From a bacterium (GTDB lineage Bacteria > UBA8248), in assembly GCA_965204535.1 (NCBI GenBank), contig CBDBEV010000001.1, forward strand, positions 1,888,001-1,952,000: a stretch of DNA of 64,000 nucleotides, given 5' to 3'. Position 1 is the first letter of the stretch, and each line of letters begins with the position of its first letter. Positions 32,006 through 57,595 of this stretch are shown here, piece by piece. The position numbers and the translations under genes were made by a program. The notes below the pieces were generated by a model. That model worked only from the letters and a program-made list of their open reading frames with translations. It was not told the DNA's origin and ran no database searches.

Positions 32006-32878
32006 ATGACTACTCCGGGGCCGATGAAAGATCGCATCGGGGCTCTCAAGCGGGAATACGACGCCTTGCGCCGGGGCAGGGAATCGCTTCTGGCAATGAT
32101 CGACGAGGTCGAAATCCCCGAGAGCGTCTACAACTCGAACGCGATTGAAAACTCCACCCTCACACTCGATGAGACCGAAAGAATCCTGCTGGAGCAATCC
32201 CTCGCGCGCGAGGTGTCGGTGCGGGAGGTTTTTGAAGCCAGGAATCTGGCCCGCGTCACCGAATACAAGCGCACCAGAGCGGAAGATAGCGAACTGGATG
32301 AGGAGTTGATATTGCTCTTGCACCAGATGCTCATCGGCGGCATCGACGACGCCATTGCGGGCCGGTTTCGGAGACAGGGAGAGTACGTGCGCGTGGGTAC
32401 GCATATCGCGCCCGCGCCCGAGCACGTGGAGCGCATGATGGAGAACATCCTCATCACATATTCGAGCGATCTGGATTCCTACTGCCTCGACAAGATTGCC
32501 CGGTTCCATCTGGATTTCGAGACGATTCATCCCTTTTGCGACGGCAACGGCCGCATCGGTCGGGTGATCATCAACTTCCAGCTTCTGCGACTCGGCCTGC
32601 CGCGCCTCATCATTCGCAACTCGGACAAGGAGCACTACTACCAGGCGTTCAACGACTATCGCGACCGCCGGACGGCCCGGACGATGGAGAACATCCTGGC
32701 GCTCGCTCTCCTGGAGTCGCTTCACAAGCGGGTGACCTGCCTGCGGGGAGAATCGGTCGTGCGGCTCTCCGACTACATCAGAAAGAGAGGCCTCTCGGCC
32801 CCCGCCACGACCAACGCCGCCCGCCGCCAGACCATCCCCGCTTTCCGGGAGAAGGGCGTCTGGAAGATCGGAGAGTGA
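32006..32878 (+). CDS. Fic family AMPylase with N-terminal inhibitory helix and C-terminal HTH-like tail
   Basis: HPFCDGNGRIGR Fic motif; SNAIEN (S/T)xxxE(G/N) motif. Confidence 0.92.
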   Translation: MTTPGPMKDRIGALKREYDALRRGRESLLAMIDEVEIPESVYNSNAIENSTLTLDETERILLEQSLAREVSVREVFEARNLARVTEYKRTRAEDSELDEELILLLHQMLIGGIDDAIAGRFRRQGEYVRVGTHIAPAPEHVERMMENILITYSSDLDSYCLDKIARFHLDFETIHPFCDGNGRIGRVIINFQLLRLGLPRLIIRNSDKEHYYQAFNDYRDRRTARTMENILALALLESLHKRVTCLRGESVVRLSDYIRKRGLSAPATTNAARRQTIPAFREKGVWKIGE

Positions 32879-33075
32879 GGGGAAGTGATCTTGAAGATTA
32901 AAGGGCGTCGCGCGGCGGCTGAGCGCTCGCCCCCGCCGCCGCATCTGGCGGGCTTCGCCGTGATGCGGCATAATGGGGACATCATGTTCGAGGATAAGCC
33001 TGAGCCCCGCTGATGGTACCCGCCGCGCGCGAACCGGGGCCGAACCGATACGGTTCGCACCTTGAGGGCCGACCA

Positions 33076-34266
33076 ATGACCCAGGAATTCCTCGCCGATT
33101 TAGCCGGCCGGATCGAAACGCTGAAGGCCGACGGCCTGTTCAAGCAGGAGCAGGTCATCTCCTCGCCGCAGCAGGGCGAGGTCACCCTCGAGACGGGTGC
33201 GGCCTGCATCAACCTGTGCGCCAACAACTACCTGGGCCTCTCCAATCACCCACGCCTCGTCGAGGCGGCCAGGGCCGCGCTGTCCCGGTATGGTTTCGGA
33301 ATGTCGTCGGTCCGGTTCATCTGCGGCACCCAGGTTCCCCACAAGCAGTTGGAGGAGCGTCTGAGCGCGTTCCTGGGAACCGAGGACACGATCCTCTTCC
33401 CGAGTTGTTTCGACGCCAACGCGGGGCTGTTCGAGAGCCTACTGGGCGAGGAGGATGCGATCATATCCGATGCGCTGAACCACGCGTCGATCATCGACGG
33501 CGTGCGTCTTTGCCGCGCGAAGCGGCTGCGCTACGCCAACAACGACATGAAGGACCTGGAAGCCAGGCTGAAAGAAGCGGCCGGCGCGCGCTACCGCCTG
33601 ATCGCCACGGACGGGGTCTTTTCGATGGACGGCTACATGGCCGATTTGCCGGCCATCTGCGACCTGGCGGAAAGACACGACGCCCTCGTGATGGTGGACG
33701 ACAGCCATGCCGTCGGCTTCGTCGGCGAAAACGGACGGGGCACGCCCGAGCGCTTTGGCGTCGCAGGAAGGGTCGACATCCTCACGGGGACCCTCGGCAA
33801 GGCGCTGGGAGGCGCGGCGGGGGGTTACGTCTCGGCCCGGCGCGTCATCGTGGAGTGGCTGCGCCAGAGCGCACGGCCCTACATCTTCTCCAACACGCCG
33901 GCCCCCGTCATCGCCCAGACCGGCCTGGCGGCGCTGGATCTTCTCGCCGGCTCGGCGGAGCTGCGGGATCGGCTCTGGCGCAATACGAGGCGCTTCCGCG
34001 CCGAAATGACCGCCCTGGGGTTCGAACTGCTGCCGGGCGAGCACCCCATCATCCCCCTGATGCTGCGCGACCCGAAGCTGGCGCAGAACTTCGCCGCCGG
34101 ACTCCGCGAGGAGGGCGTGTTGGTCACCGCGTTCTCGTTTCCCGTCGTCCCGCGCGGGGGGGACAGGATACGCACGCAGATGTCGGCGGCCCACGATACG
34201 GGAGACCTCGACCGCGCCATCGGCGCATTCGCCGAGGTGGGCCGCAAACTCGGGGTAATCACCTAG
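33076..34266 (+). CDS. kbl: Glycine C-acetyltransferase (2-amino-3-ketobutyrate CoA ligase)
   Basis: [53 protein letters not shown]. Confidence 0.95.
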
Positions 34267-34276
34267 CGCACGGGAG

Positions 34277-35077
34277 ATGAGCATGCTCACACTTGAAGGA
34301 CAGGCGGCTATCGTCACCGGCGGCGCGAGCGGCATCGGACGCGCCACCGCGCAGACGCTGGCGGATGCGGGTGCCGCCGTCGTCATCGCCGACCTGAACG
34401 AGGAGGCGGGTGCTGCGGCAGCGGAAGAGCTCAAAGCGGGGGGCGCCGAAGCGCTGTTCGTCCGGACCGACGTGGCCGAGGCCCGCGACGTCGAAGCGCT
34501 CATCGAGGCGGTGACGGAGCGGTTCGGCTCGCTGGAAATCCTGATGCACTTCGCGGGAATCGGTGTGGAAATACACGCTCTCGAAACCACTCTCGAGGAT
34601 TGGAACCGCATCATCGCCGTCAACCTCACGGGAAGTTTCCTGATGATGCAGGCCGCCGGCGCCGTGATGGTCGAGGCGGGATACGGCCGGATCGTGTCGA
34701 TGTCCTCAGTCGCGGGGCTGCGGGGCGGGACGGGGCGCGCGGCCTACGGCGCGTCCAAGGGCGGCGTCGCGGCGTTGACGAGGGTGTTGGCGACCGAGTG
34801 GGCGGAGTCCGGCGTGACGGTCAACACCCTGGCGCCGGGGCCCGTCGAAACCCCGCTGGTGAAGGAAATGCACGACGAGGAGACCCGCCGGGCCTATCTC
34901 CAGAGCGTTCCGATGAACCGCTACGGGGCGCCGGAGGAGGTGGCGGCCGCGGCCCTCTACCTGGCGCTGCCGCAATCGGGCTACATCAACGGCGTGACGC
35001 TGCCCGTGGACGGCGGCTTCGACGCCGGCGGCGTCATCAAGCGCGGCCCCGGAGGGTTCGGAGAGACGGCCTCCTGA
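34277..35077 (+). CDS. SDR family oxidoreductase
   Basis: TGGASGIG and YGASKGG motifs. Confidence 0.92.
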   Translation: MSMLTLEGQAAIVTGGASGIGRATAQTLADAGAAVVIADLNEEAGAAAAEELKAGGAEALFVRTDVAEARDVEALIEAVTERFGSLEILMHFAGIGVEIHALETTLEDWNRIIAVNLTGSFLMMQAAGAVMVEAGYGRIVSMSSVAGLRGGTGRAAYGASKGGVAALTRVLATEWAESGVTVNTLAPGPVETPLVKEMHDEETRRAYLQSVPMNRYGAPEEVAAAALYLALPQSGYINGVTLPVDGGFDAGGVIKRGPGGFGETAS

Positions 35078-35078
35078 A

Positions 35079-35638
35079 GCGGCTGTTGAAAAATCCTTGT
35101 CGGGAAGAATTCCTCCTTCTTCAGTTGGAATTCACCCCCCCAACCCCATGTCAGCGGGGCTTTTTGCTTTTACCCCCCTGTCAAGGGGGGGTAGGGGGGG
35201 TTGCCTTTCATGCAGGGGGCCTTTGAAGCTCCCTCATCGGTCGCGTCAAACCCTCGATACAGCCCTTGTGGACCTGTTCGGAATGAAGAAGTTTTTCGTT
35301 CTCCTCACCCTGAGTAGCCGCCGGAGGCAGCGTATCGAAGGGCAATCGCGCCCAATGCGGAAGCGATGCGTCGCACGCCGGTAGAGGTTTTTTGACCCTC
35401 TCTCTTCGGTCGGGTCAAATCTTCGATACAAACGCTCTTTCATCAGTCGCGTTTGACCAGCGCGCCTACTCGGGATGAGGTTTTGTAGCCGTCTGTGTGG
35501 TAGAAAGGAGAACCGCCTCGTAATCCGCCATACCATCCGCTCGCCCTCGACTCGAAAACCAACCCCCCCTACCCCCCCCTTAACAGGGGGGTAAAAAAAG
35601 AAGGCCCCCCTGACAAGGGGGGCTTTTTCAACAACCTC
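35079..35638. mobile_element. MITE-like element with IS1182-type ends filled with palindromic repeats
   Basis: GCGGCTGTTGAAAAA ... TTTTTCAACAACCTC flanked by TGAA on both sides; interior has CCCCCCTACCCCCCCTT-type and CCTGAGTAGC..GTATCGAAGG repeats. Confidence 0.7.
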
Positions 35639-35728
35639 TGAAGCACGGCGCGCATCCCCTCCGCATGGCGTTTTGGGCGCACGAAAGATTAAGCCCTTGA
35701 TGGATGGGATACGACGCCCCCTTCGCGC

Positions 35729-36181
35729 CTACCCGGGTCTCCTTGCGAAGAACTCGCGGTACTTGGGCGCCAGCGGCGCGTCGCGCCAGTCGAAGCCGGT
35801 GGCGTCGGCGGCCCCCTCCATCTCCCGCGCGCTCCAGTCGTTCTCATCCGCCAGATGGTTCAGCGAGCAAATCCCGGCCCGCCCCGTGGCCTTTCAGTGC
35901 ACGAACGCAGGGCCGTGGGCCTTGGCTTCTGAGAGCGCGCGGCTCACCTCGGCCAGCGAGGCGGGGCTGAACTCGGCCGGCGAGACGGGGACGTTCACGT
36001 AGCGCATCCCCAGCGCCTCGGCCTCTGCCTTGGCGCGCTCGGGCGGCAATTCGCCCTGGTCTTCTTCGGGAAAGCGCGTGTTGATGATGGTCTTGACGCC
36101 TCTTGCGGCGAGGGATTCCAGATCCGCGGGCTCGGGCTGCGAGCCGAAGGCGATGTCTTCAGATGCGTGGAAGTATTCCAT
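35729..36181 (-). CDS. Predicted selenoprotein: DUF442/Blh-like sulfurtransferase-phosphatase fold protein (150 aa, Sec at codon 96)
   Basis: GSQP..DL..L...GVKTIINTR..E, GMRYVNVPV, then GPAFVH-TGA(35894-35896)-KATGRAG, matching the HCxxxxR active-site loop; frame stays open to TAG at 35729; SECIS-like hairpin follows; selC in window. Confidence 0.85.
35862..35883 (-). promoter_or_regulatory. Putative bacterial SECIS of the DUF442-like gene
   Basis: mRNA UGA-AAGGCCACGG-GGCGGGC-CGGGAUUU-GCUCGCU: 6-7 bp stem starting about 11 nt after UGA, G-rich loop. Confidence 0.6.
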
Positions 36182-36203
36182 GTAAAAACTCCAGGTATGG
36201 GGG

Positions 36204-36764
36204 TTAATCCGCCGTCACGCCCTCTATCTTGAAGGGCTCGCCGTTCACCTCCACGGTGGAGTGGAGCGGCACCGGCTCGGTGATGAGGGCCTCGGCGAAA
36301 CAGCCGTTCTTCGCGTTCTTGATGAGGTGCGCGAGCTTCTCCGCAGGCTCGTCCGATTCGACTTTGAGATGCGTGTCCACGGCCTCCCACTTGTTGAACA
36401 CGGTGCCCTTGAGCACCGAGCCGCCCAGCAGCTTTCGGAACCGCACCGAGACGCTCGCTCCCTTGATCTCCATTTTCATCATGTGCGCGTACCGCGACAC
36501 CTGGGTGAGCAGTCAGAACCCCGTCGCCATGGCGAGATAGGCCATCGGCGTGGGGTATTGCGCCGTGCCGCCGATGTTCGCGCCCTCGTCGCAGAAAATC
36601 TCGAACTTGCCCGCCGTGCCGCGCTTGAGCTGCAGGGAGCCTTCGTGCATCTCGGTGTGGACGGTGTTGTCGGTATACAGCCCCCCTTTGGGGAGTTCGG
36701 GCTTGTCGATGACGCGCTCGCCCGGCACGGTGGAGGTGCTGTGTCCATCTACAGGACCTGTCAT
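36204..36764 (-). CDS. Predicted selenoprotein: OsmC/Ohr-like protein (186 aa, Sec at codon 84)
   Basis: ORFs 36513-36764 and 36204-36500 are in frame across one TGA (36513-36515): DEGANIGGTAQYPTPMAYLAMATGF-U-LLTQV. Second Cys in AKNGCFAE; GAGGAG RBS at the upstream start. Confidence 0.9.
36483..36500 (-). promoter_or_regulatory. Putative bacterial SECIS of the OsmC-like gene
   Basis: mRNA UGA-N12-GUG-U(bulge)-CGC-GGUAC-GCG-CAC; spacing, bulged U and GGU loop resemble the E. coli fdhF SECIS. Confidence 0.7.
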
Positions 36765-36982
36765 GGATTTCTCCTCATGAATATGTGGTTCGCATGATTT
36801 CGTCGATGCGCGCAGGATACGACAAACGCTTCGCCAAGTATAGTTTCCGGAGAGTGGAACCGGCGGGCTTGATTGAGGAATTCCGGCGAGCCTGCTAAAC
36901 AGGTGGTCACCAAATCTATGAATGGCCAGTGCGGCGAAGGGAGCGCGTTCCGCCGCCGCGCCCGGCCGGGAGGAATGCGGAT

Positions 36983-37381
36983 ATGTTCAACAAATTTCAT
37001 CACATCGGCGTCGCGGTGAAGGACATGGACGCCGCCATCGCCCTGTACGAGGGCATGGGCGCGAAGCTGCTCGCGCGGGAGACCTCCGCCGACGGCGCGA
37101 CCGATCTGGCCATGCTGGATTTGGGCGGCGACCTCATCGAGCCCATCTCGCCCATCCAGCAGGATTCGCCTCTCGCCAAGTTTATCGAGGAGCGCGGCGA
37201 GGGCCTCCACCACGTGGCCTTCGACGTGAAGAACATCGACGGCGTGCTGGCCGACATGAAGGCGCAGGGCTTCGAGTTGATTGATGAGAAATCGAGGCCC
37301 GGCTTCGGCGGACACCTCATCGCCTTCATCAAGCCCAAGAGCACGATGGGCACGCTGTGGGAGCTGGTGGAGGACGTTTAA
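36983..37381 (+). CDS. VOC family protein, methylmalonyl-CoA epimerase-like
   Basis: HHIGVAV, GEGLHHVAFDV, AFIKPKSTMGTLWELVE. Confidence 0.85.
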   Translation: MFNKFHHIGVAVKDMDAAIALYEGMGAKLLARETSADGATDLAMLDLGGDLIEPISPIQQDSPLAKFIEERGEGLHHVAFDVKNIDGVLADMKAQGFELIDEKSRPGFGGHLIAFIKPKSTMGTLWELVEDV

Positions 37382-37385
37382 GTCC

Positions 37386-37499
37386 GTAGGGGCGATCCCC
37401 CGTGGTCGCCCATTCGTCCATTCAAGGACAGGCACGGGGGCCTGTCCCTACGCCTCGTTTCAAGCGCGGGTTTCCGTAGGGGCGCTTCGCGAAGCGCCC
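37386..37499. repeat. GTAG-type REP cluster
   Basis: GTAGGGGCGATCCCCCGTGGTCGCCC, GGACAGGCACGGGGGCCTGTCCCTAC, GTAGGGGCGCTTCGCGAAGCGCCC. Confidence 0.8.
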
Positions 37500-37581
37500 G
37501 CACCCTTCGGTATGGTCCGTTCCCGAGCGGCGGGGCGGCCCCGAGGAGGGGCTGCCGTAAGGTTCAGGAAAAATTATTTCC

Positions 37582-38343
37582 TCAGTCGCCCCGTACGAGG
37601 CCTTCTCTCACTTTCGGCATCGTTTGCGCGATGTCCCGTATGGGCAGGCCGTGCGTCGGCGCGACGACTTCGACGTCCAGTTCATCCATCAACTCTTCGA
37701 GCTTGTCGGCGTAGACGTTCATGTCGGTGAAGGTCGTCCAGTACAGGGCGCGTTCGGCGAAAACGCCCAGCACGTCGACCAGATCGAGCGAGGTGGCCTC
37801 TTCGGCGAACATCCCGCAGTGGCCGTCCGTATGGTAGTGGCTGTAGGCGAAGCCGTCTCCCGGAAACAGCACGCGCCCTTTGGTCTCGAACCCCCAGAGA
37901 GAACTCCGCAAGTCCCGGATCACCGGCTCCACGGCCATGAACTTCGTATCGCCCAGGTCGATGGCGTCTCCCACGCGCATCTCCCGGAAGCGGCCCTCGT
38001 GCTGGGGAAACGCCAGGTGGTAGTCGCACATGTCCCCGTGGATGGTGAGGTCGGGGTATCGGTCGAGCACGCGGCCCAGACCGCCCGAGTGGGGGGTCTC
38101 CTGATGGGTCAGGAACAGGTGTTCGAGCGGGCCTCCGCCGCGGGCCAGGATGTCCCTCATCTGGCGCTCGATGATGGGGAAATCCTTGGGGTGTCCCGTC
38201 TCTATCAGCATGGAGGCTTCTGAGCCGATGATGAGGAAGGCCGCGTTGTAGGAGTGATAGATCTTGCCCTGGGAGTGTTGGACCAGGCAGTCGCCGAGCC
38301 AGAAGACGCCGGGCGATATTTCGCGGGGCAGGGGATGGCTCAT
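37582..38343 (-). CDS. Metallo-beta-lactamase-fold protein (FprA/ODP-like di-metal domain)
   Basis: LIETG, THQETPHSGG, LFPGDGF, VAPTHG. Confidence 0.82.
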   Translation of the reverse strand: MSHPLPREISPGVFWLGDCLVQHSQGKIYHSYNAAFLIIGSEASMLIETGHPKDFPIIERQMRDILARGGGPLEHLFLTHQETPHSGGLGRVLDRYPDLTIHGDMCDYHLAFPQHEGRFREMRVGDAIDLGDTKFMAVEPVIRDLRSSLWGFETKGRVLFPGDGFAYSHYHTDGHCGMFAEEATSLDLVDVLGVFAERALYWTTFTDMNVYADKLEELMDELDVEVVAPTHGLPIRDIAQTMPKVREGLVRGD

Positions 38344-38351
38344 GTGTGCTC

Positions 38352-39215
38352 CTATCTTTCGAGGCCCAGCGCGACGTATTGGGGTTTGACGACGCCCCGG
38401 TCGAGACCCGCCAAAACCTCATCCAGCACGGCGAATTGTTGCTCGACCAGACGGCGCCCGCGCAGGATGGCGCCGTATCCCGGAGCGATGGTCTCGATGT
38501 CGTAGCGCTCGAAGACTTCGGTGATGCCTTTTCGGATGGAGTCCGTCCTCGCGCCCTCGAGCCACCAGTAGCGCGTGTTCAGCAGGAACGAGCGGACGAA
38601 AGCGGTCGTCGTCACCTCGTCTTCATCCAGCAGCCAGGGGCCTTCCGCCCCCTCCGCCCAGAGGTGGCTGAACATGTCCGAGGTGAACAGGATACGCGTG
38701 GCCGCATCGTAAATCCAGCGGGTGCTGATGAGGCGGATCGGCGCGTTCATCACCTCGATGTATCTATCGCCGATTTCAAGGGGATGGAGCGGCTTCAGTA
38801 TCGTGGTGGGCAGGATGGGGTTGCCGTTGTTCGCTTCGTTCGGCTCGATCGCTTCGAACTCGAGCCACTCGTTGATTTCCGGCACGGGGGCGAGGCACTC
38901 CACCACGTTGAAGCGCTTGGCGACCGCCATGGCGTTTCCCACCGACATGAATTCGTTGATGCGCAGCGGGAGCAGGTGCAGCGGCGTATCGGGCTCGATG
39001 AGGGATTCCAGCTGCGCCAGAATCTCGGCTTCGTGGGCGGCGTAGCCCGTGTCGAGCAGGAGCGCGCCCGCGTCTTCTTTCAGGAGAAAGCAGTTCGATA
39101 CGCTGTGCCCGCGCGCGCTGATGGGGTATGCGCTGATGCGCCCGTCCAGCGGGAACGTGTTGTGGAGGGCGTAGACCTTTCCCTCCGCGAGTTCGGCAAT
39201 CCCGGAATACGACAT
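38352..39215 (-). CDS. MBL-fold protein with degenerate metal site
   Basis: LLLDTG, LFTSDMF, IAPGYG scaffold, but the His-rich motif is replaced by LRINEFMSVGN. Confidence 0.75.
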   Translation of the reverse strand: MSYSGIAELAEGKVYALHNTFPLDGRISAYPISARGHSVSNCFLLKEDAGALLLDTGYAAHEAEILAQLESLIEPDTPLHLLPLRINEFMSVGNAMAVAKRFNVVECLAPVPEINEWLEFEAIEPNEANNGNPILPTTILKPLHPLEIGDRYIEVMNAPIRLISTRWIYDAATRILFTSDMFSHLWAEGAEGPWLLDEDEVTTTAFVRSFLLNTRYWWLEGARTDSIRKGITEVFERYDIETIAPGYGAILRGRRLVEQQFAVLDEVLAGLDRGVVKPQYVALGLER

Positions 39216-39405
39216 GCGTACGGCGGCCTTTCCTTGTCGGCGACGAACAGAAGACTTGCGCCGAGGGAATTTGCGACCAGATGACTAAAAATCCATTGTA
39301 ACCCCATTCCGCGTGAATTGGCGATGCCCGCAGCATTTCTCTTTAGAATCGATTCTGACCTAGAGGGGAAGAGACATTACAATCTCTTGTAGAGCACTCA
39401 ACAAC

Positions 39406-39852
39406 CACTCCCCCCTTGAGGGGGTCGGGCTTTCCCCTCGGGAAGCCCGACAGAGGCCGAGTCCTTTGGACGAAGGCCGATGTGGTGGGGGGACATGCCA
39501 CAGAAAAAGCTCCCCCCACCGACTCGTTTGCGGGCTTCGCCCTTACCTCGTCGACTCCCCCTCAAGGGGGGAGTGAAGCGTGACTTCCACCGAACTCCCC
39601 AACCCCCTTCTCAGGGGATAAAGGCAACCCCCCCTACCCCCCCTTGTCAGGGGGGTATGAAAAGGCGACGCCCGCCGCCGGGAGAGGGGCTTTTGTTTTT
39701 TCTTGCCCCCTGACATGGGGGTCTTTCTTTTTTTGCCCCCCTGACAAGGGGGGGTAGGGGGGGGTGGTTTTCGAGTCGAGGGAGGGCCGGCGGGGAGAGA
39801 GCGATTTCTCGGCTTGGGAGTTTGCTCGTCATTCCGGTGGATGCCGGAATGA
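39406..39852. repeat. Cluster of palindromic intergenic repeats
   Basis: CACTCCCCCCTTGAGGGGG...CCCCCTCAAGGGGGGAGTG element (39406-39575), inverted CCCCCCTACCCCCCCTTGTCAGGGGGG pair, and GTCATTCCGGTGGATGCCGGAATGAC hairpin. Confidence 0.8.
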
Positions 39853-39939
39853 CGGTGTTATCGACTTGGCGCGTTATTTCCCCTTGAGCGTCGTCTTCTC
39901 AAACAGGATTCCCCTAACGCCATGTTATATGGATGGTTA

Positions 39940-40198
39940 TCCGCCGCGTGGTTCGCCGTCACCAAAATGGCGGCGCCTCCGCTTCCCAAAGGCCGGGGGA
40001 CGGGGTAGGATTTATGGAAGAGCCTGCGATGGATTCGGCCGGTTGGGTCTCGTGCGGCGGGAGCCCGCGAACCCCGTCAGGTCCGGAAGGAAGCAGCGGT
40101 AAGTGGACACTCCCGGGCGCCACGAGGGCGCCTGACCGGTCGACTCCATCGCAGGGTCTGCGCGCCGCTCACGGGGTATGGGGCCCTTCAACGGCGGA
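39940..40198 (+). ncRNA. ffs: Signal recognition particle RNA (core 40023-40155; probably long form)
   Basis: GAACCCCGTCAGGTCCGGAAGGAAGCAGCGG helix-8 motif; stem CCTGCGATGGA/TCCATCGCAGG; directly upstream of dnaX. Outer limits are inferred from TCCGCCG/CGGCGGA pairing. Confidence 0.9.
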
Positions 40199-40219
40199 AA
40201 TCCTTGGGATGGATTCTTG

Positions 40220-41950
40220 ATGGCCTTCATCGGCAGCGCCAGGAAATGGCGTCCGCAGCGTTTCGAGGAACTCATCGGCCAGGAGCACATCCGGCGAACG
40301 CTCTCGAACGCGCTCGCCTCGGGGCGCGTCGCGTCCGCCTATCTGTTCAGCGGGACGCGCGGGGTCGGCAAGACGACCACCGCGCGCATTCTCGCCAAGG
40401 CGCTCAACTGCGAATCGGGAGACGGCCCTCTGCCCGAGCCGTGCAACGAGTGTTCATCGTGCGAAGAGATCACCGCAGGAAGCCATCCCGATATTCTCGA
40501 AATCGATGCCGCCACCTATACGGGGGTGGACAACGTGCGCGAGTTGCGCGAAGGGCTGCGCTACCAGCCCGCGCGCGGGCGCTACAAGACGGTTATTTTC
40601 GATGAAGTGCACATGCTCTCCAAAAGCTCCTTCAACGCGCTGCTCAAGACGCTCGAGGAACCCCCGCCCCACGTCGTCTTCATTCTGGCCACCACGGAGA
40701 TCAAGAACGTCCCCGACACGATCTTGAGCCGCTGCCAGGTGTTCGAGTTCCGGCGGATCACGACCTCGGTCATCGCGGAACATCTTTTGAGGATCGTCGA
40801 GGCGCAGGAGAGGAAGATGGACGAGGCGGCCGTCAAGCTGCTGGCGCGGATGGGAGAGGGCAGCATCCGCGATGCGCAGTCCCTGCTCGATCAGGCACTC
40901 GCTTTCTCCGCCGAGGACCCGGTATCGAGCGAGGAAGTGGAAAAAGTGCTCGGGGTGCCGTCGGGCAGTATCTATAAAGCCCTGGTCGAGGCGGTGGTCG
41001 CGCGCGACGGCAACAAGGCGCTCACCGAGCTCAAGAACCTCTTCGACGCGGGTCACGACCTCAAGCTCTTCTCCTCGAACCTGCTGGAGTATCTGCGCGA
41101 CTGCATGGTGCTCCTGTCGGCAGGCGACGATGAGGCGCTCTTCGACGTGGCGGCTTCTGAGATCGAAGAGCGCAGGCAGGTGGCCGCGAAGATGAGCTTC
41201 GCCGAGGCGCATCAGGCGTATTCCATTCTGCAGGGTGCCGAGTTCGAGCTCAGGACGTCGGATCATCCCCGCATGACGCTCGAGGTCGCGATTCTGCGCA
41301 TGTGCCAGATCGAGCCGATAGCCGATTTGGGCGCATTGATGGAGCGGCTCGAATCCATGAGCGGGGGAGCGGCGCCGAATCCCCCCCGCGCCCCCTCGCC
41401 GGGAGGAGAGGTTCCCGCCGCCGCGCCGCCTCCGGTGCCCCGGGAAACCACGGCGCCCGAGCCTGCGCCGCCTGCGAGTGAACCTGCTTCGGGGGGTTCT
41501 CCCGTCGCGCAAGTAGAAGTGCAGGAGTGGAACTCCGTCGAGGCGCGGCGCGTGTGGGCCGGAGCGGTGGAGGCCTTGCGCCCGATGAGGCGCCCGCTCT
41601 TTCACGGCGTGGAACTCGATCTGGAAACGGAAGGAACCATCCGCGTGGTGCTCGCCCGGGAGAATCGAAACGCGCAGGGCCTGCACATGGCGCAGGAGGT
41701 GCGGCCCGAAATCGAGAAGTTTTTCCGGGAGCATTCCCCCTGGAGCGCGAGGGTCGAGATAGCGGGCGCGGAAAACGGCGCGCGTTCGCAAACCGGACAG
41801 GGGGCCGGGGAGACGAGCAATGCGGGTGGCCGGAAACGGGATGATAATGAAGAGGCCGTGATCCAGGAGATCGTGGATTTGTTCAACGGAAAGATAGTCG
41901 ACATTCGCCAGGGGCGGATGCGAAAATCGGGTGGAAATACATTCGCTTGA
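40220..41950 (+). CDS. dnaX: DNA polymerase III subunit gamma/tau
   Basis: ARKWRPQRF, GTRGVGKTT, DEVHML, NALLKTLEEPP, TILSRCQ. Confidence 0.97.
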   Translation: MAFIGSARKWRPQRFEELIGQEHIRRTLSNALASGRVASAYLFSGTRGVGKTTTARILAKALNCESGDGPLPEPCNECSSCEEITAGSHPDILEIDAATYTGVDNVRELREGLRYQPARGRYKTVIFDEVHMLSKSSFNALLKTLEEPPPHVVFILATTEIKNVPDTILSRCQVFEFRRITTSVIAEHLLRIVEAQERKMDEAAVKLLARMGEGSIRDAQSLLDQALAFSAEDPVSSEEVEKVLGVPSGSIYKALVEAVVARDGNKALTELKNLFDAGHDLKLFSSNLLEYLRDCMVLLSAGDDEALFDVAASEIEERRQVAAKMSFAEAHQAYSILQGAEFELRTSDHPRMTLEVAILRMCQIEPIADLGALMERLESMSGGAAPNPPRAPSPGGEVPAAAPPPVPRETTAPEPAPPASEPASGGSPVAQVEVQEWNSVEARRVWAGAVEALRPMRRPLFHGVELDLETEGTIRVVLARENRNAQGLHMAQEVRPEIEKFFREHSPWSARVEIAGAENGARSQTGQGAGETSNAGGRKRDDNEEAVIQEIVDLFNGKIVDIRQGRMRKSGGNTFA

Positions 41951-41980
41951 GTGGTGAGGGACTACCTCGGGGAGATTCTC

Positions 41981-42298
41981 ATGTTGAAAGGCGGCATCGG
42001 CAATCTGATGAAACAGGCGCGCCAGATCCAGGACAAGATGGCCAAGCTTCAGGAGGAGATGGCGGCGAAGACGGTGGAGGCCTCCGCCGGCGGGGGGATG
42101 GTGAACGTGGTCGCCAACGGGGCGGGCGAAGTGGTCTCGGTGAAGATAGACCCGCAGGTGGTCGACCCCGACGACGTGGAGATGCTCGAGGACCTGGTGC
42201 GCGCCGCGTGCAACGAGGCGTCCCGAAAAGGCAAGGACATGATGTCCGAGGAGATGAAGAAACTCACCGGCGGCCTGCCCATTCCCGGCATGTTCTGA
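41981..42298 (+). CDS. ybaB: YbaB/EbfC nucleoid-associated protein
   Basis: LMKQA, ASAGGGMV, DVEMLEDLV; lies between dnaX and recR. Confidence 0.95.
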   Translation: MLKGGIGNLMKQARQIQDKMAKLQEEMAAKTVEASAGGGMVNVVANGAGEVVSVKIDPQVVDPDDVEMLEDLVRAACNEASRKGKDMMSEEMKKLTGGLPIPGMF

Positions 42299-42389
42299 GC
42301 AGGTGCGCGGCCTCCGCCCCGCGCATCGTTTTATATCGTCATTATCGTCGTTTCCGGCCCGCCGCCTGAAACCCGAGTGAGAAAACGCC

Positions 42390-42998
42390 ATGCAGTTGAG
42401 CCGCTTTCCCGCCATCGAAGAGTGCATCGAGGCGTTCCGCCGTCTTCCGGGGGTGGGGCCGAAGAGCGCGCAGCGAATCGTCTTTCATCTGCTGGGCAAG
42501 GACCCCGAGGCCGCCGGGAAAATCGCCGCCTCCTGCGAGGCGCTGCATGAAAAGGTGGGCCTGTGCGGCACATGTTCCATGCTCGTGGAAGGCGAAGCGG
42601 GAGGTGCCGACTGCGCGGTGTGCGGCGCGCGCGACCCGAGCGTCATCTGCGTGGTGGAAGAACCCGCCGACGTGTTCGCGGTCGAGCGCGCGGGAGGCGT
42701 GAAGGGACGCTACCACGTGCTGATGGGCGTCATCTCCCCCTTGGACGGCGTGGAGCCCGAAGACCTCACCATCGCCGGGCTCATCGAGCGCGTGAAGGCG
42801 GGCGATGTGAAAGAAGTGATCCTGGCCCTGAACCCCAACATGGCGGGCGAGGGGACTTCCCTTTATCTCGCCCAGGTGCTCAAGCCGCTCGGCGTGCGCG
42901 TGACCCAACTGGCGCACGGCCTTCCCATGGGCAGCCACCTCGAATACGCGGACGAGATGACGCTCACCCGCTCGCTCGAAGGCCGCCGCGAGATGTAG
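42390..42998 (+). CDS. recR: Recombination mediator RecR
   Basis: LPGVGPKSAQR, C4 Zn finger, ICVVEE, YHVLMG, EYADEMTL. Confidence 0.97.
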   Translation: MQLSRFPAIEECIEAFRRLPGVGPKSAQRIVFHLLGKDPEAAGKIAASCEALHEKVGLCGTCSMLVEGEAGGADCAVCGARDPSVICVVEEPADVFAVERAGGVKGRYHVLMGVISPLDGVEPEDLTIAGLIERVKAGDVKEVILALNPNMAGEGTSLYLAQVLKPLGVRVTQLAHGLPMGSHLEYADEMTLTRSLEGRREM

Positions 42999-43009
42999 CC
43001 TTGCGCGCG

Positions 43010-43629
43010 GGCGTTGTTGAGAAAGCCCTGATTACGTGATCCGGTGAATGGAGTAAGCCGGGAAGGGAGGGGTAGGGACAGGTCGCGACCTGTCCCTACA
43101 GGTGCGATTCGGTTTTGTTCGTCATTCCAGCGGCGGTCAATACCGACCGGGAAGAGGTATCCGTAGGGACAGGCCCCCGTGCCTGTCCGTGGCCCCCGTG
43201 TCCTTCCTGTATCGGAGTGAATACGACCGACGGGCGGCCACAGGGTCAGACATATATGTCTGACCCCTACGGCCTCCATTCGGGGGGCGCAGGCCTTTTT
43301 TAACAGTCCCCCCAAAGGGGGAGTGGTTTGGCCCGACCCGCTCGTGCTCTTTTCTCCGGAAGTCAGGGTTTTCCTGTAGGGGCCGCATATATGCGGCCCG
43401 TGTAGTGGGTGAAAAAAATCAGGGTCGCATATATGCGACCCCTACACTCCTCCCTTGGCTTTTGATCGTCATTCCGGTGTCGGAGCCGACCGCAGAGGAA
43501 GGGTTCGACGGAATGACGAACAAAGCCGCACCGTCTCGTAGGGACAGGTCGCGACCTGTCCCTACAGCACCCCTTTCCCGGTTGGTTCCATACGCCGAAT
43601 CACGGAATCGGGCCTTTCCCAACAACCCC
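43010..43629. repeat. Dense GTAG-REP cluster inside degenerate IS1182-type MITE ends
   Basis: GTAGGGACAGGTCGCGACCTGTCCCTAC twice, GTAGGGGCCGCATATATGCGGCCC, GGGTCGCATATATGCGACCCCTAC and others; ends GGCGTTGTTGAGAAAG / CTTTCCCAACAACCCC. Confidence 0.75.
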
Positions 43630-43632
43630 GGT

Positions 43633-44463
43633 TCAGGGGGTATAGAGCCGGATCGAGATGATCCGCACCTCTTGTTGCGGCATGCTCCCCGTCCCTACGG
43701 GGGTTGCGCCGATTTTCTCCACGATGTCCATCCCTTTGACCACTTTTCCGAAGACCGTGTGCTTGCCGGTGAGCCAGGGGGTGTCGATCAGGTTGATGAA
43801 AAACTGCGAGCCGTTCGTGTCGGGGCCGGAGTTCGCCATCGCGAGCACGCCCTTCAGGGGCGGACGCGATTTGAGCTTCGCGTTGAAGCGATAGCCCATG
43901 TTCTCGTACGCGTCCTTGAGCGTGAGATCGTCGATGCGCTTCCTCACTTCTTCCCTGCGCTTGTCGAGGTCGGCCTGGGAGCGGATGCCCATCTTCTGGA
44001 ACAGGGGATGCACCAGGGTGCGCTGGAAGTCGCTCTGGTTCCTGATGGGCAGGAAGGCGTGGGGACGCCCGTCCTTCAAGGCCTTCATTTTGTGCAGGCC
44101 CAGGGCGTCGGCGTTGATCTCATCCTCGAACTTATAGCCCGGCCCCCCGGTTCCGTTTCCCCTGGGGTCGCCGCCCTGGATCATGAACTCCTTGATGACG
44201 CGGTGAAACTTCAGCCCGTCGTAAAAGGGGCGCTTCACCTTTTTGCTGGTCTTGTGGTCCGTGAAGAAGCGCTCCCCCGTGGCGAGGCCCATGAAGTTCG
44301 CCACCGTCTTGGGCGCTTCTTCGGGGAACAACTCGATGTAGACGTCGCCGAAATTCGTCTTCATCAAGAGAACCGGGTTGGTGGGTTTTTCCTTTGCGAT
44401 CTCCTGCGCGAAAGAGGCCGAAGCCACGAGGAGCGAGAGCGCGGTTGCGAGTATGATTTTCAT
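43633..44463 (-). CDS. Exported cyclophilin-type peptidyl-prolyl isomerase with internal insertion
   Basis: Signal peptide; APKTVANF, FHRVIKEFMIQGGDP, LAMANSGPDTNGSQFFI, KHTVFGKV. Confidence 0.93.
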   Translation of the reverse strand: MKIILATALSLLVASASFAQEIAKEKPTNPVLLMKTNFGDVYIELFPEEAPKTVANFMGLATGERFFTDHKTSKKVKRPFYDGLKFHRVIKEFMIQGGDPRGNGTGGPGYKFEDEINADALGLHKMKALKDGRPHAFLPIRNQSDFQRTLVHPLFQKMGIRSQADLDKRREEVRKRIDDLTLKDAYENMGYRFNAKLKSRPPLKGVLAMANSGPDTNGSQFFINLIDTPWLTGKHTVFGKVVKGMDIVEKIGATPVGTGSMPQQEVRIISIRLYTP

Positions 44464-44595
44464 TGCGTGTCTCCGGGTGCTTGCGTGAAGAGGTGTGTTG
44501 TCCCGTCCACCCGGGCGGCTCGGGTGATGCGAGTCCCGCCGGGTGTCTCATGTTCTATAGCGTGTCGTGCTCCAAGTCCATAGAGGGGAGCATAT

Positions 44596-45066
44596 TCAAT
44601 TCATCCGCCCGAAGCGCTGCGTGAGCGCCTCTTCGCGGTAGGAGAAGATGCGGCGCAGTTGGCGGCTCACCATGAAGCTGTCGGCCAGGAACGAGAAGGG
44701 CCCCAGCGGCAGCTTGTAGTGGATGATGTCGCGCATCTCCACGCCGCCCTCGATCGGCAGAAAATGGTGCTGGTGGTGCCAGAAGCGATAGGGGCCGAAG
44801 CGCTGCTCGTCCACGAAGAGGCGGCCTTCCTCCACGTGGGTGATCTCCGTGACCCAGTGCACCGGAATCCCGAGAAGGGGCTTCACCCGGTAGCAGATGA
44901 GGACGCCGGGGTGCATCCTTTCAGGCAGTTCGTTCTCGACGACCAGGTGAAGCTCGGGCGGTGTTATCTCCGCGAGGTTCTGCGGGTTCGAGAAAAACGC
45001 CCAGGCGGCGCCGGGTTCGATGGGAAGCTGCTGGGCCGCGTCCAGGCGAAAGAAGTTGCGCCGCAT
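44596..45066 (-). CDS. SRPBCC family protein
   Basis: AWAFFSNPQNLAEITP, FVDEQRFGPYRFWHHQH, IFSYR; GGAGGGAG RBS upstream. Confidence 0.85.
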   Translation of the reverse strand: MRRNFFRLDAAQQLPIEPGAAWAFFSNPQNLAEITPPELHLVVENELPERMHPGVLICYRVKPLLGIPVHWVTEITHVEEGRLFVDEQRFGPYRFWHHQHHFLPIEGGVEMRDIIHYKLPLGPFSFLADSFMVSRQLRRIFSYREEALTQRFGRMN

Positions 45067-45332
45067 CGTATTCTCCCTCCTGCCGGGTTCCGGGCAAGGG
45101 TCGTCTTCATCCGAACCACCGGGAGGAACGAGGCGGCGCCGGTGATGTGCCGGGAGCCAGTTTACCACCGATGCGAGCGCATGACAGCTTCCCGCCCGTT
45201 CCGTCTTGAATCTGGTGGACCCGGGCGATCTCTCCGCAGCCTTTGCGCATGGCCTTCGGATGAATTTTCGGAAACCCGCTTGCAACACGACGTGTATCAT
45301 GCGATGATTCCGCCATGAGGAGGGAATCCCCG

Positions 45333-45596
45333 ATGCCCATGCGCAACCCGACGCATCCCGGTGAGAGCATCCGCGAAGCGTTGCAAGCCGCCGAATGGAC
45401 GGTGACGGACGCCGCCGGGCGGCTCGGCGTTACGCGCAACACGCTCTCGCGCCTCGTGAACGGGCGCATCGGCATTTCGCCGGAAATGGCTCTGGCCCTG
45501 GAGCGGGTCGGCTGGAGCAACGCCGAATTCTGGATGAGGAGACAGGCCGCATACGATCTGGCGCGGGCAAGACGCGCACGGGATTCGGCGGCGTAA
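45333..45596 (+). CDS. higA: HigA-family HTH antitoxin (no adjacent toxin)
   Basis: PTHPGE, LGVTRNTLSRLVNG, ISPEMALAL, AEFWMRRQAAYDL. Confidence 0.88.
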   Translation: MPMRNPTHPGESIREALQAAEWTVTDAAGRLGVTRNTLSRLVNGRIGISPEMALALERVGWSNAEFWMRRQAAYDLARARRARDSAA

Positions 45597-45670
45597 CCAC
45601 AACGCCGCCGGGAACCTCGCAGCAGGTTCTCGATTCACGGGCGATATATTCGATAGGCGGGTTTGCGCGT

Positions 45671-45762
45671 TGGCGGAGAGAGAGGGATTCGAACCCTCGA
45701 GGCCGGTTTCCCAGCCTACTCGCTTAGCAGGCGAGCGCCTTCAGCCACTCGGCCATCTCTCC
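45671..45762 (-). tRNA. tRNA-Ser(GCT)
   Basis: GGAGAGA acceptor stem, anticodon arm CTCGC-CT-GCT-AA-GCGAG, long variable arm, GGTTCGAATCC, encoded CCA. Confidence 0.97.
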
Positions 45763-45894
45763 GCGAGGGCCGCCATTCTATATCATAAGCGGGGGCGGCG
45801 GCTATCCTCCGCAGGAGAAATCGCCCCCGCGAGGGGTTTTGAAAAAGCCCTCCCACAAACAGAGAATGGATTTCTCAATCGACATAAGCTTATG

Positions 45895-46408
45895 AATCAA
45901 CTCCCCCCTTGAGGGGGAGTCGAAGAGCTAAGGGCGTAAGCCCGAAAGCGATTCGGTGGGGGGACATGCCACAGAAAAAACTCCCCCCACCGGTTCGGTT
46001 TCGGATAAAATCCCCCTCACCTCACCGTCTGGCTTTCCCCTCGGGAAGCCAGACCCTCAAGGGCCTGTTGAAAAACCCCTCGTCGAGCGGAATTGATTGC
46101 CGGAATGACAATCAAAAGCACATTCACCCGTAGGGGCGGCCCCCTGTGGCCGCCCTGCCCCGTGGCTACGCTTAGCACGGACAGGCACGGGGGCCTGTCC
46201 CTACGGTGAACAATTCGATGATTGGGATTCCTTCCCCACCGGAGGGTTTTTCAACAAACCCCTCAAGGGGGGAGTTGATTTCCTTGTTTCCAGGTCGGCA
46301 ACTACCTTCAAGAGGGAGTGTTCTCTTCTCCCTCCCCGGTCGTGTTCGACCTTCAATCCTCCTTCTCAGGGGATAAAGGCAACCCCCCCTACCCCCCCTT
46401 GTCAGGGG
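45895..46408. repeat. Palindromic element (45895-46280) plus CCCCCCTACCCCCCCTTGTCAGGGG repeat
   Basis: Terminal IRs AATCAACTCCCCCCTTGAG / CTCAAGGGGGGAGTTGATT; interior similar to 14984-15136 and 39406-39575. Confidence 0.8.
46061..46261. mobile_element. 201-bp MITE with IS1182-type ends and CTCAA target duplication
   Basis: CTCAA-GGGCCTGTTGAAAAACCC ... GGGTTTTTCAACAAACCC-CTCAA; carries a GTAG-REP pair (46130-46204). Confidence 0.85.
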
Positions 46409-46441
46409 TCAAAACCGACCGGGGGAGCGCCGCCCGGCGGC

Positions 46442-48895: not shown

Positions 48896-49134
48896 GTCGC
48901 TTTCCGGTCCCCTCGACCGCTCGCTTCGGTCGCCGTCCCGGTGGACTGCATGCCATGGCCCTATTTTGCAGAAATGTTCCGGGCAAGTATAGCGCCGAAT
49001 CGCGGCGCCGTGCGTCCGGCGCTTCGGTGCGGACGGTGAAAAGGGGTCGGTGAGTTCCGATATGTGATCGGCGATGTCCGTATGGAAGGGCTGCGAGAAA
49101 CCCGGGTTTCCTTCAGACCCGCCCGTATGAAAGA

Positions 49135-49220
49135 TGGCGGAGGGAGAGGGATTCGAACCCCCGGAGCTTTCGCTCAGTGGTTTTCAAGACCACCGCCTTC
49201 GGCCGCTCGGCCATCCCTCC
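49135..49220 (-). tRNA. tRNA-Ser(TGA)
   Basis: GGAGGGA acceptor stem, anticodon arm GTGGT-CT-TGA-AA-ACCAC, variable arm, GGTTCGAATCC, CCA. Confidence 0.97.
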
Positions 49221-49274
49221 GCGAAAAAGCCGCTCCCATTATTCTAGCACGTCGAGATGGGGTTTTCCGCCGTC

Positions 49275-49350
49275 GTAGGGACAACCCCCCGTGGTTGTCC
49301 TTTCTTAGATCGGGCGCGTGTGTCGGACAGGCGCGGGGGCCTGTCCTTAC
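49275..49350. repeat. GTAG-type REP doublet
   Basis: GTAGGGACAACCCCCGTGGTTGTCC and inverted GGACAGGCGCGGGGGCCTGTCCTTAC. Confidence 0.75.
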
Positions 49351-49449
49351 GGGCTTGAACGGAAGATGAAAAGAAGTCTTTTTCCGGTTCGTGAGCGGTG
49401 ATAAACTGGAGGGTACGGAATCTTCGCCGGTCGGGAGGTTGAGCGCATC

Positions 49450-50154
49450 GTGAAAAAGCAGGTTTCACGCCATAGGGATTTGGCTCCGTTCGCCCTGAGC
49501 CTCGAAGAAATGCGGGGAGTCTGCTCTTCGTTGTCGGAGGAGTTCGACAATCCGGATGAAGTTTCTGTCTCGATCGACGTGAAACTCCCCGGCGGAGTGC
49601 GTCTGGAGTTTGAAAGCGTTGAAGAAATGATGGGGCATCCATCGTTACCCGACATCATCAAAGAATATAACATCCGGATCGGGGGGAAACGCATCTTTGA
49701 TAGGGACGGGAAAGAGCAATCTCTTCGGATTGGGTATTCAAATTTTTTGGGGGCGAAAGCGACCATTTCTGCGCGTTCCGAGAAAGAGGGGTGGTGCGCC
49801 GGAGTCATTGAGACAGCTTCCTCTGTTTTGCGCAAGCATAGGGTCTGGCATCATTGGGTTCCCCGCAATTTTTTCTTTTGGATGATTGTTTATCCTCTTT
49901 CCTGTTTTGGTTTTCTTCTTTATTTTGGATGGTCTGAGTACAAGGTTCGGTTTGATTTGCTACTTATTTCTTTGATTCCTGCTTGGCTCATGTGTTTTGC
50001 GTCAAACCGTATACTTCCTGCGAGTGCGATACGGGTGAGGGAGAAGGAAGGTTTTTTGCGCCGTTACTCTACAGAAATCAAAGTGGTTGCTGGTCTGGTT
50101 TCGGCTGTCGCCTTGACTATCGCCTTATTCAAAAATTGGACATTTGGTTCGTAG
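49450..50154 (+). CDS. Hypothetical membrane protein (soluble N-domain plus about 3 C-terminal TM helices)
   Basis: 234-codon lower-GC ORF with a GGAGG RBS-like motif; hydrophobic C-terminal segments. Confidence 0.65.
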   Translation: MKKQVSRHRDLAPFALSLEEMRGVCSSLSEEFDNPDEVSVSIDVKLPGGVRLEFESVEEMMGHPSLPDIIKEYNIRIGGKRIFDRDGKEQSLRIGYSNFLGAKATISARSEKEGWCAGVIETASSVLRKHRVWHHWVPRNFFFWMIVYPLSCFGFLLYFGWSEYKVRFDLLLISLIPAWLMCFASNRILPASAIRVREKEGFLRRYSTEIKVVAGLVSAVALTIALFKNWTFGS

Positions 50155-57498: not shown

Positions 57499-57595
57499 GG
57501 GAGCGCATCGGTGCTGGTGTGCCGCCTGGACTTCAAATCCAGTGGACGGGGCTAATCACTTCGTCGGTGGGTTCGACTCCCACGCGTTCCCGCCA
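57499..57595 (+). tRNA. selC: tRNA-Sec(TCA)
   Basis: 8-bp acceptor stem GGGAGCGC/GCGTTCCC, 6-bp D stem with TGGT loop, CTGGA-CT-TCA-AA-TCCAG, long variable arm, 5-bp T stem, GCCA end. Confidence 0.97.

Follow-up and report, generated by a model that had tools for sequence, protein, structure and literature searches.

The locus raises the question of whether an in-frame TGA ends a short protein of 95 residues or is read as selenocysteine (Sec) at the catalytic position of a complete DUF442 (PF04273) domain. The gene lies on the minus strand at 35729..36181 of the window, by which we mean the whole analysed stretch of 64,000 nucleotides. Starting from the ATG at 36181, the frame runs for 95 codons to the TGA (35896-35894) and for 54 more to a TAG (35731-35729), and this TGA, located between GPAFVH and KATGRAGICSL, is the only internal stop in the 150 codons. 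The preliminary description, made from the sequence alone, had placed the TGA on the nucleophile codon of a 150-residue read-through domain, and this was borne out: it is codon 96 of 150. It named no strand, and its count of 54 further codons is right for the total after the TGA, but only 43 remain after the peptide that it quoted. A GGAG ribosome-binding site (36189..36192, minus strand) is located 7 nt 5' of the ATG, and GGAG-like sequences are present in the orthologues. We saw no signal peptide in the gene product by eye, and no match to a sigma-70 promoter was found within 35400-37050. A DNA contig from a sequencing run, which may be the source sample itself, matches 35565-37500 with one difference. 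RNA contigs of relatives span the DUF442 gene and the OsmC-related gene upstream of it, and are patchy over 36800-50000; these contigs carry no information on strand, level or a single transcript.

We examined how consistently the TGA is kept at this position (35894..35896, minus strand), which the alignment of TGA and Cys loci identifies as that of the nucleophile. The codon aligned with residue 96 was TGA in all 30 homologous loci of related genomes, and the possibility considered beforehand, that no other genome would have TGA here, was thereby dismissed. In the first sample, taken from the same family, the gene was present in all 24 other genomes, with TGA in 46 of 49 matches. Within the phylum (51 genomes), matches were obtained in 35 of the 41 other family members and in none of the nine genomes of other families; 57 of these 60 matches, from six genera and two paralogues, had the TGA inside, and the remaining three were one decayed copy, one fragment and one distant Cys protein. 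Among the 79 matches listed in a GTDB scan, TGA was present in 42 of 42 close loci and TGC or TGT in 37 of 37 more distant loci, and among the 80 matches listed in a metagenome scan TGA was present in four, all belonging to this clade. The stop in the 58 Sec loci was always TGA and never TAA or TAG, down to 42% identity. For first copies (22 sequences), dN/dS was 0.18 upstream and 0.22 downstream of the TGA; the corresponding ratios for 17 second copies were 0.16 and 0.21. A downstream ratio of about 0.2 points to purifying selection on that part of the frame.

The genome also carries selA, selB and selD, each over its cut-off, as well as a tRNA-Sec gene (selC, 57499..57591, plus strand) with the anticodon TCA (ARAGORN; Rfam RF01852, 75.9 bits versus 47), which was the only TCA-anticodon tRNA found by ARAGORN. 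UBA8248 is named among the most selenoprotein-rich genomes in BSepDB, with 48-54 genes, in the available text of PMC13326102. The genome has a further Sec-DUF442 gene (L035, G000:C1:709102-709563), 45% identical, with the TGA, a UKGVGR loop and the same hairpin; it is flanked by a SirB1-like gene and by ilvD in convergent orientation. Second copies in two other genomes are decaying (L217 in G010 and L218 in G009), one with an extra TGA at Trp132 and the other with a stop and a frameshift.

Such decay is what would be expected if the TGA were a true stop, leaving a pseudogene or a 95-residue protein; the fact that 56 of the 64 top database matches, obtained in a search with the DUF442 protein, end at the His before the TGA also speaks for a true stop, and the few copies with an ATG directly after the TGA (MASGR type) would fit a stop-restart split. 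However, a true stop agrees poorly with the exclusive use of TGA in 58 loci and with the purifying selection downstream, and in most copies the TGA is followed by a codon for Lys or Arg and not by a start. As for a Trp codon, the only TCA-anticodon tRNA is tRNA-Sec, the orthologues end on TGA too, and Trp is encoded by TGG in the gene. We regard these readings as extremely improbable; nonsense mutation, sequencing error, stop-restart and TGA as Trp were ruled out on the basis of TGA conservation, downstream selection and the tRNA set. TGA 96 almost certainly encodes selenocysteine, and the protein would be a genuine selenoprotein of the DUF442 family. The proposal of a selenocysteine variant made in the preliminary description is thus upheld by the conserved TGA, the Sec machinery, the hairpin described below and the Cys found in distant relatives. 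Current gene calls truncate the Sec-DUF442 proteins at the catalytic His.

The SECIS-type hairpin of the DUF442 gene is located at 35862..35883 (minus strand), with a 7-bp stem formed by nucleotides +11 to +17 and +26 to +32 after the TGA and a loop of 8 nt, which has G in position 2 and GGNU at +20 to +23. The bSECIS model, as given in Fig. 2 of PMC13188914, allows a loop of 3-9 nt, a stem of 4-16 bp, G in the first two loop positions, a spacing of 16-37 nt and an MFE of at most -7.5. All values for our hairpin fall within these limits, with 8 nt in the loop, 7 bp in the stem, G as the second loop nucleotide, a spacing of 17 nt and an MFE of -10.5 kcal/mol. The seven stem pairs were kept in 58 of 58 TGA loci, which comprise 41 distinct sequences; three of the pairs showed changes, on one side only. 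Two-sided compensatory change in the stem was not found, with five of the seven pairs never varying, and the stability of the hairpin was not above that of shuffled sequences (z -0.07). Since there is no two-sided covariation and the energy is no better than that of shuffles, the case for a SECIS element consists of its position, the one-sided changes and the constraint on synonymous sites. This constraint is substantial: pS over the hairpin codons was 0.039, in comparison to 0.37 and 0.32 on the flanks, which is an approximately tenfold cut in synonymous change. Arg101 is encoded by CGG or CGA alone in 43 of 43 cases, although CGC makes up 42% of Arg codons genome-wide. The hairpin overlaps codons Gly100 to Leu107, and because the invariant stretch RAG[IVL]CSL coincides with the stem, its constancy is at least partly an RNA constraint. 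The SECIS element here constrains the protein sequence of a helix at the active site. The Sec-tRNA would, with near certainty, be brought to the UGA by hairpin-bound SelB.

The family and fold of the read-through protein were in agreement with the DUF442/PTP-like assignment made at the outset. The protein scored 48.3 bits against PF04273 (gathering cut-off 26.1), and the AlphaFold model, obtained with a 17-sequence alignment, was a PTP-type domain with a pLDDT of 93.5. Helices 99-114, 118-127 and 138-146 of the model are all C-terminal to the TGA; the part after the TGA both aligns and folds, and the initial concern that it might not align with the family did not materialise. The proposed check with Pfam and TIGR01244 gave a divided result: PF04273 was over its cut-off, but membership in TIGR01244 (sulfur transferase subfamily) was not found (48.9 bits versus a curated cut-off of 85.85). 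The paralogues scored 53.0 and 50.7 with this model and a close Cys relative scored 67.2. TIGR01244 and Blh were the only NCBIfam matches, both under cut-off, which indicates that the library has no model for the Sec-DUF442 protein, and PF00581 (rhodanese) gave no match at E <= 0.1. A single-sequence search of the PDB returned nothing significant (best E 0.084), whereas a profile search did find a match, with an alignment to NMA1982. The best structural match was 3GXG, a DUF442 protein of Shewanella (Z 17.8, rmsd 2.6, 140 aligned), followed by 2F46, which is NMA1982 (Z 16.8, rmsd 2.4, 139 aligned; by Foldseek, E 2.2e-7 and TM 0.76). The best 50 rows of the structure search were all PTP-type, and the Z scores of PTP-fold phosphatases differed from those of the two DUF442 proteins by no more than about 1 unit. 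The Cx5R signature of classical and dual-specificity PTPs was absent, as the loop is x4R; Cx5R proteins formed a separate clade in the trees.

Across 53 Sec copies, His95, residue 96, Arg101 and the E-loop residues Asn34, Arg36 and Glu40 were nearly or fully invariant. Arg101 (35879..35881, minus strand) is the invariant Arg at the end of the Ux4R motif, and Glu40, which aligns with E53 of NMA1982, is its predicted partner on the strength of this alignment. The first three loop residues are variable, with 15 loop variants in 58 Sec loci, RSGGR included. Gly is present at +3 in 6 of the 53 Sec copies versus 97 of 122 Cys relatives, and at +4 in 52 of 53 Sec copies, so the remark that the KATGR loop departs from the family pattern was justified; the altered substrate specificity that it was taken to suggest is at most a possibility, given the variable first loop residues and the overlap of RAG[IVL]CSL with the stem. 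As Lys, Gln, Glu or Arg at +4 would be compatible with the stem too, RNA alone does not force this shift of Gly. The loop motif of the TIGR01244 sulfur transferases is given as CRxGxR in the available text of PMC11094781; the loop in the window, UKATGR, does not match it, and URSGGR is present in two deep-branching copies.

Cys105 was invariant as well, in 53 of 53 Sec copies and in both Cys proteins nested among them. The aligned residue is Phe, Leu or Met in 98 of the 122 Cys relatives, and the stem fixes the Cys105 codon as NGC. Cys105 thus looks like a buried core residue imposed by the RNA, possibly offset by the clade-invariant Trp132. A second Cys at position 132, in the loop after helix 118-127, is present in 26 of the 122 Cys relatives, and all Sec copies have Trp there.

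The upstream neighbour is an OsmC-related gene of 186 codons (36204..36764, minus strand), with its own TGA at codon 84 (36515-36513), which scored 168.2 bits with NF041052 (cut-off 95) when the TGA was read through. It lies 22 nt upstream of the DUF442 start and has a SECIS-type hairpin at 36483..36500 (minus strand), whose GG at +20/+21 matches that of the DUF442 hairpin; the two genes form a probable two-selenoprotein operon. The OsmC gene is directly upstream in 20 of 21 KATGR-type copies, a linkage limited to one genus. In 20 of 21 non-KATGR copies a SirB1-like gene is upstream, usually with ilvD alongside, and this is the older context. In the genus of the window the DUF442 gene has moved beside the OsmC-type selenoprotein, which may hint at a shared role in sulfur metabolism or oxidative stress.

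Several other features of the surroundings were recorded. Intergenic, G+C-rich palindromic repeats with a terminator-like score lie at 35544-35640 and 37420-37484 (also at about 39450-39880 and 43000-43600); many unrelated contigs pile up on them, and they have the look of a REP-type element. A divergent VOC gene (36929-37381, plus strand; 115.2 versus 114.95 for methylmalonyl-CoA epimerase, just over the cut-off) and a pair of ODP/flavodiiron-like genes of the metallo-beta-lactamase fold (37582-39215, minus strand) are syntenic in most of the genus. On the other side, a Fic-domain gene (32006-32878, plus strand), followed by a PLP-dependent aminotransferase-class gene and an SDR gene (33013-35077, plus strand), converges on the DUF442 gene and varies between genomes. 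A small SRP RNA (40041-40140) and two tRNA-Ser genes (45674-45762 and 49138-49220) are also present. A genome-wide scan for in-frame TGA gave 571 noisy candidates and was left unused in favour of a motif scan. The latter gave nine AhpD-like CxxU, three OsmC-like and three Prx-like ITUPP genes, SelD, two rhodanese domains and several WUxxC candidates, most of them with GG-loop hairpins; with the exception of SelD and the rhodaneses, this list is motif evidence alone.

The function of Sec-DUF442 was considered in the light of its characterized relatives. DUF442 domains are described as sulfurtransferases in Xylella Blh (available text of PMC5823870), in Cupriavidus, where Cys94 and Arg99 are required (parts of PMC9163753 and PMC8533005), and in Hyphomicrobium Rhd442 (excerpts of PMC11094781). 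NMA1982, on the other hand, is described in the accessible part of PMC10716126 as a slow phosphatase whose activity requires its Cys and Arg, with D71 as the general acid; its kcat as a phosphatase is 4.4e-5 /s, versus 4.89 /s for sulfur transfer by the Cupriavidus protein. We propose that Sec-DUF442 is probably a rhodanese-like sulfurtransferase. Arg101, held by Glu40, would bind a donor of sulfane sulfur (thiosulfate, persulfide or polysulfide), the Sec96 selenolate would take the sulfur to give an enzyme selenopersulfide, and this sulfur would then be handed to an acceptor thiol by a ping-pong mechanism; "probably" applies to donor binding, selenopersulfide formation and transfer taken jointly.

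Five of the seven close Cys loci inspected adjoin sulfur-relay genes (persulfide-dioxygenase-like, rhodanese, DsrE and TauE). The domains found in 23 longer relatives scanned were two rhodanese and two metallo-beta-lactamase domains (one relative has both) and one peroxiredoxin-type domain, and the Cys relatives P0073 and P0075, fused to rhodanese (one also to metallo-beta-lactamase), fall next to the Sec clade in the trees. The neighbours of the Cys loci and the rhodanese fusions favour sulfur transfer through a selenopersulfide. Against this reading, the Sec copies themselves lie outside sulfur operons: their neighbourhoods showed no fusion or co-location with a persulfide dioxygenase or SQR, and the genes are stand-alone. 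One copy (L060), the only such case, is near a thiosulfate-reductase-like operon, in convergent orientation and with a match under cut-off. The genome of the window has 11 rhodanese domains and one TusA; two of the rhodanese domains have TGA in x4R loops, a type already known among Sec sulfurtransferases, and these speak for sulfur transfer. On the negative side, the genome has no close persulfide dioxygenase (best E 3e-7, 28% identity), DsrE and TauE queries gave no match in it, and no glutathione synthetase was over the cut-off (82 versus 299 bits).

Cys105, invariant in all 53 Sec copies as well as in the two nested Cys proteins, could instead point to a thiol-redox enzyme, a peroxidase or small-molecule reductase, in which the substrate would oxidise Sec96 and either Cys105 or an OsmC-type partner would resolve it. 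The tight linkage to the OsmC-type selenoprotein in the KATGR copies (20 of 21) and the mostly redox nature of the catalogued selenoproteins, as stated in the available text of PMC13188914, would agree with it. We consider it unlikely, however, as Cys105 lies in the SECIS stem with its codon fixed as NGC, is replaced by Phe, Leu or Met in relatives and so looks RNA-forced, is located inside helix 99-114 of the AlphaFold model, and the OsmC link is found in one genus alone.

The PTP fold and the invariant Arg and E-loop Glu are equally what a phosphatase acting through a phospho-selenocysteine intermediate would show, in the manner of the Cx4R phosphatase NMA1982. Position 70, which aligns with the general acid D71 of NMA1982, is Glu in the window, but only in 26 of the 53 Sec copies, with Asn in 15 and Thr in 7, and the general-acid Asp of PTPs is not conserved in the Sec clade. 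Arg101 is followed by Ala in each of the 53 Sec copies; in the PTP motif, Ser or Thr follows the loop Arg. Loop Gly at +3, kept in just 6 of the 53, likewise counts against a phosphatase, and no kinase domain was found in the 23 longer relatives scanned. The activity of NMA1982 is measurable and depends on its Cys and Arg, but its turnover is very low, and the loop glycine is said to be fully conserved in its homologues (accessible part of PMC10716126). A phosphatase seems to us improbable, and it is to the same degree doubtful that DUF442 would provide the first natural Sec phosphatase, in which Sec would serve outside redox chemistry and would have been recruited on two separate occasions, in the sponge- and water-dwelling family of the window and in secreted proteins of Vicinamibacterales.

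The older gene order raises one more reading, namely a carrier of sulfur or selenium for a dedicated client, either in the repair of the Fe-S enzyme IlvD or in selenium delivery to SelD. In most older loci ilvD adjoins the gene, on the same strand in six of them (L054, L065, L210, L211, L214 and L215), and the genome has many TGA-containing redox genes. In other loci, however, ilvD is convergent (L057, L058, L206, L207 and L220), so that the link may be inherited synteny, and no link to selA, selB or selD was seen in the neighbourhoods of Sec-DUF442 genes. We regard such a carrier as very unlikely, and a rhodanese-like sulfurtransferase remains our preferred reading.

The history of Sec in the family was followed in trees for which a selection of rows was used and the catalytic residue was masked. 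The Cys proteins P0033 and P0066 (51% identity) joined the Sec proteins in one clade (support 100/99), with P0033 nested among the Sec proteins in three trees; the AU test did not reject a Sec-only clade without P0033 (p 0.114). P0033 and P0066, known from protein sequence alone, keep Cys105 and Trp132 and relax residues 106-107. A Sec-to-Cys reversion is likely in these two, an event called rare in bacteria in the available text of PMC13188914. A profile search of 201 genomes from the phylum of G059 (Acidobacteriota) gave one DUF442 match with TGA. The codon falls on the catalytic position, and the N-terminus of the protein resembles a signal peptide. The match represents a second Sec-DUF442 subfamily, HUAGG[GS]R, from Vicinamibacterales (L227:979-1521 of G201:C1, minus strand; also L231-L233). 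Four of 29 parsed loci of these relatives had TGA and 25 had Cys, and one further locus was unparsed. The selB gene was over the cut-off in three of the four TGA genomes, in a fifth genome whose DUF442 copy is frameshifted and in one of three Cys-only genomes, and selA was present in the one TGA genome of this type that was checked. As many as 116 of the best 120 matches in the Vicinamibacterales search end at the catalytic His, with over 100 truncated clusters. In these genes, too, a 7-bp hairpin follows the TGA, at a distance greater by three bases; its synonymous rate, 0.43, is not depressed in the four sequences available. A tree holding both Sec groups together was rejected (AU p 4.5e-92; 44 rows, LG+G4), which makes two origins likely; Sec thus appears to have arisen twice independently in DUF442. 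In a search for further Sec lineages, no TGA was found inside 62 matches (57 of 201 genomes) from the phylum of G060 or inside two matches (six genomes) from that of G058. P0133, a 94-residue singleton that ends at the catalytic His and is more distant than the other truncated matches, is possibly another deep Sec member.

The suggestion that this variant is not among the known selenoprotein families also stood. Neither PF04273 nor TIGR01244, nor any phosphatase, is listed in the May 2026 catalogue of 119 families (PMC13188914 Table 1). Term searches found no DUF442 selenoprotein in deep-Sep (main text and four supplements) or in the accessible part of a 2022 review, and no literature naming the DUF442 family with selenoprotein terms was found, BSepDB Table S2 being outside the comparison. 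Sec-DUF442 is an uncatalogued selenoprotein form of DUF442, and its first Sec clade is that of a family of sponge- and water-dwelling bacteria. A PTP-type fold is thereby added to the bacterial selenoproteome, and an enzyme family is revealed that was hidden by truncated gene calls in sponge-associated, marine and Vicinamibacterales genomes. Cys appears to have been replaced by Sec twice, independently and with a different hairpin register each time, and this, together with the existence of Cys proteins at 51-78% identity, provides natural Sec/Cys pairs, which make testable both the gain from selenium in sulfur transfer and the choice between sulfurtransferase and phosphatase for DUF442.

Among known systems, Blh (Xylella, Agrobacterium), the SQR-fused DUF442 domain (Cupriavidus) and Rhd442 (Hyphomicrobium) have in common with Sec-DUF442 the PF04273 domain, the PTP-type fold, the E-loop Glu and a six-residue loop from the nucleophile to Arg. 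Unlike Blh, the Cupriavidus domain and Rhd442, Sec-DUF442 has Sec for Cys, Gly mostly at +4 instead of +3 and a score under the TIGR01244 cut-off, and its gene stands alone instead of adjoining dioxygenase, SQR or shdr genes. NMA1982 (PDB 2F46) and 3GXG/3GXH have the same fold and x4R loop at an identity of about 20%, but their nucleophile is Cys. The rhodanese-domain selenoproteins (PF00581 forms 1-5, PMC13188914 Table 1) also have Sec heading a short active-site loop and are, like Sec-DUF442, predicted sulfurtransferases; DUF442, however, is another Pfam family, and its best-matching folds are PTP-type.
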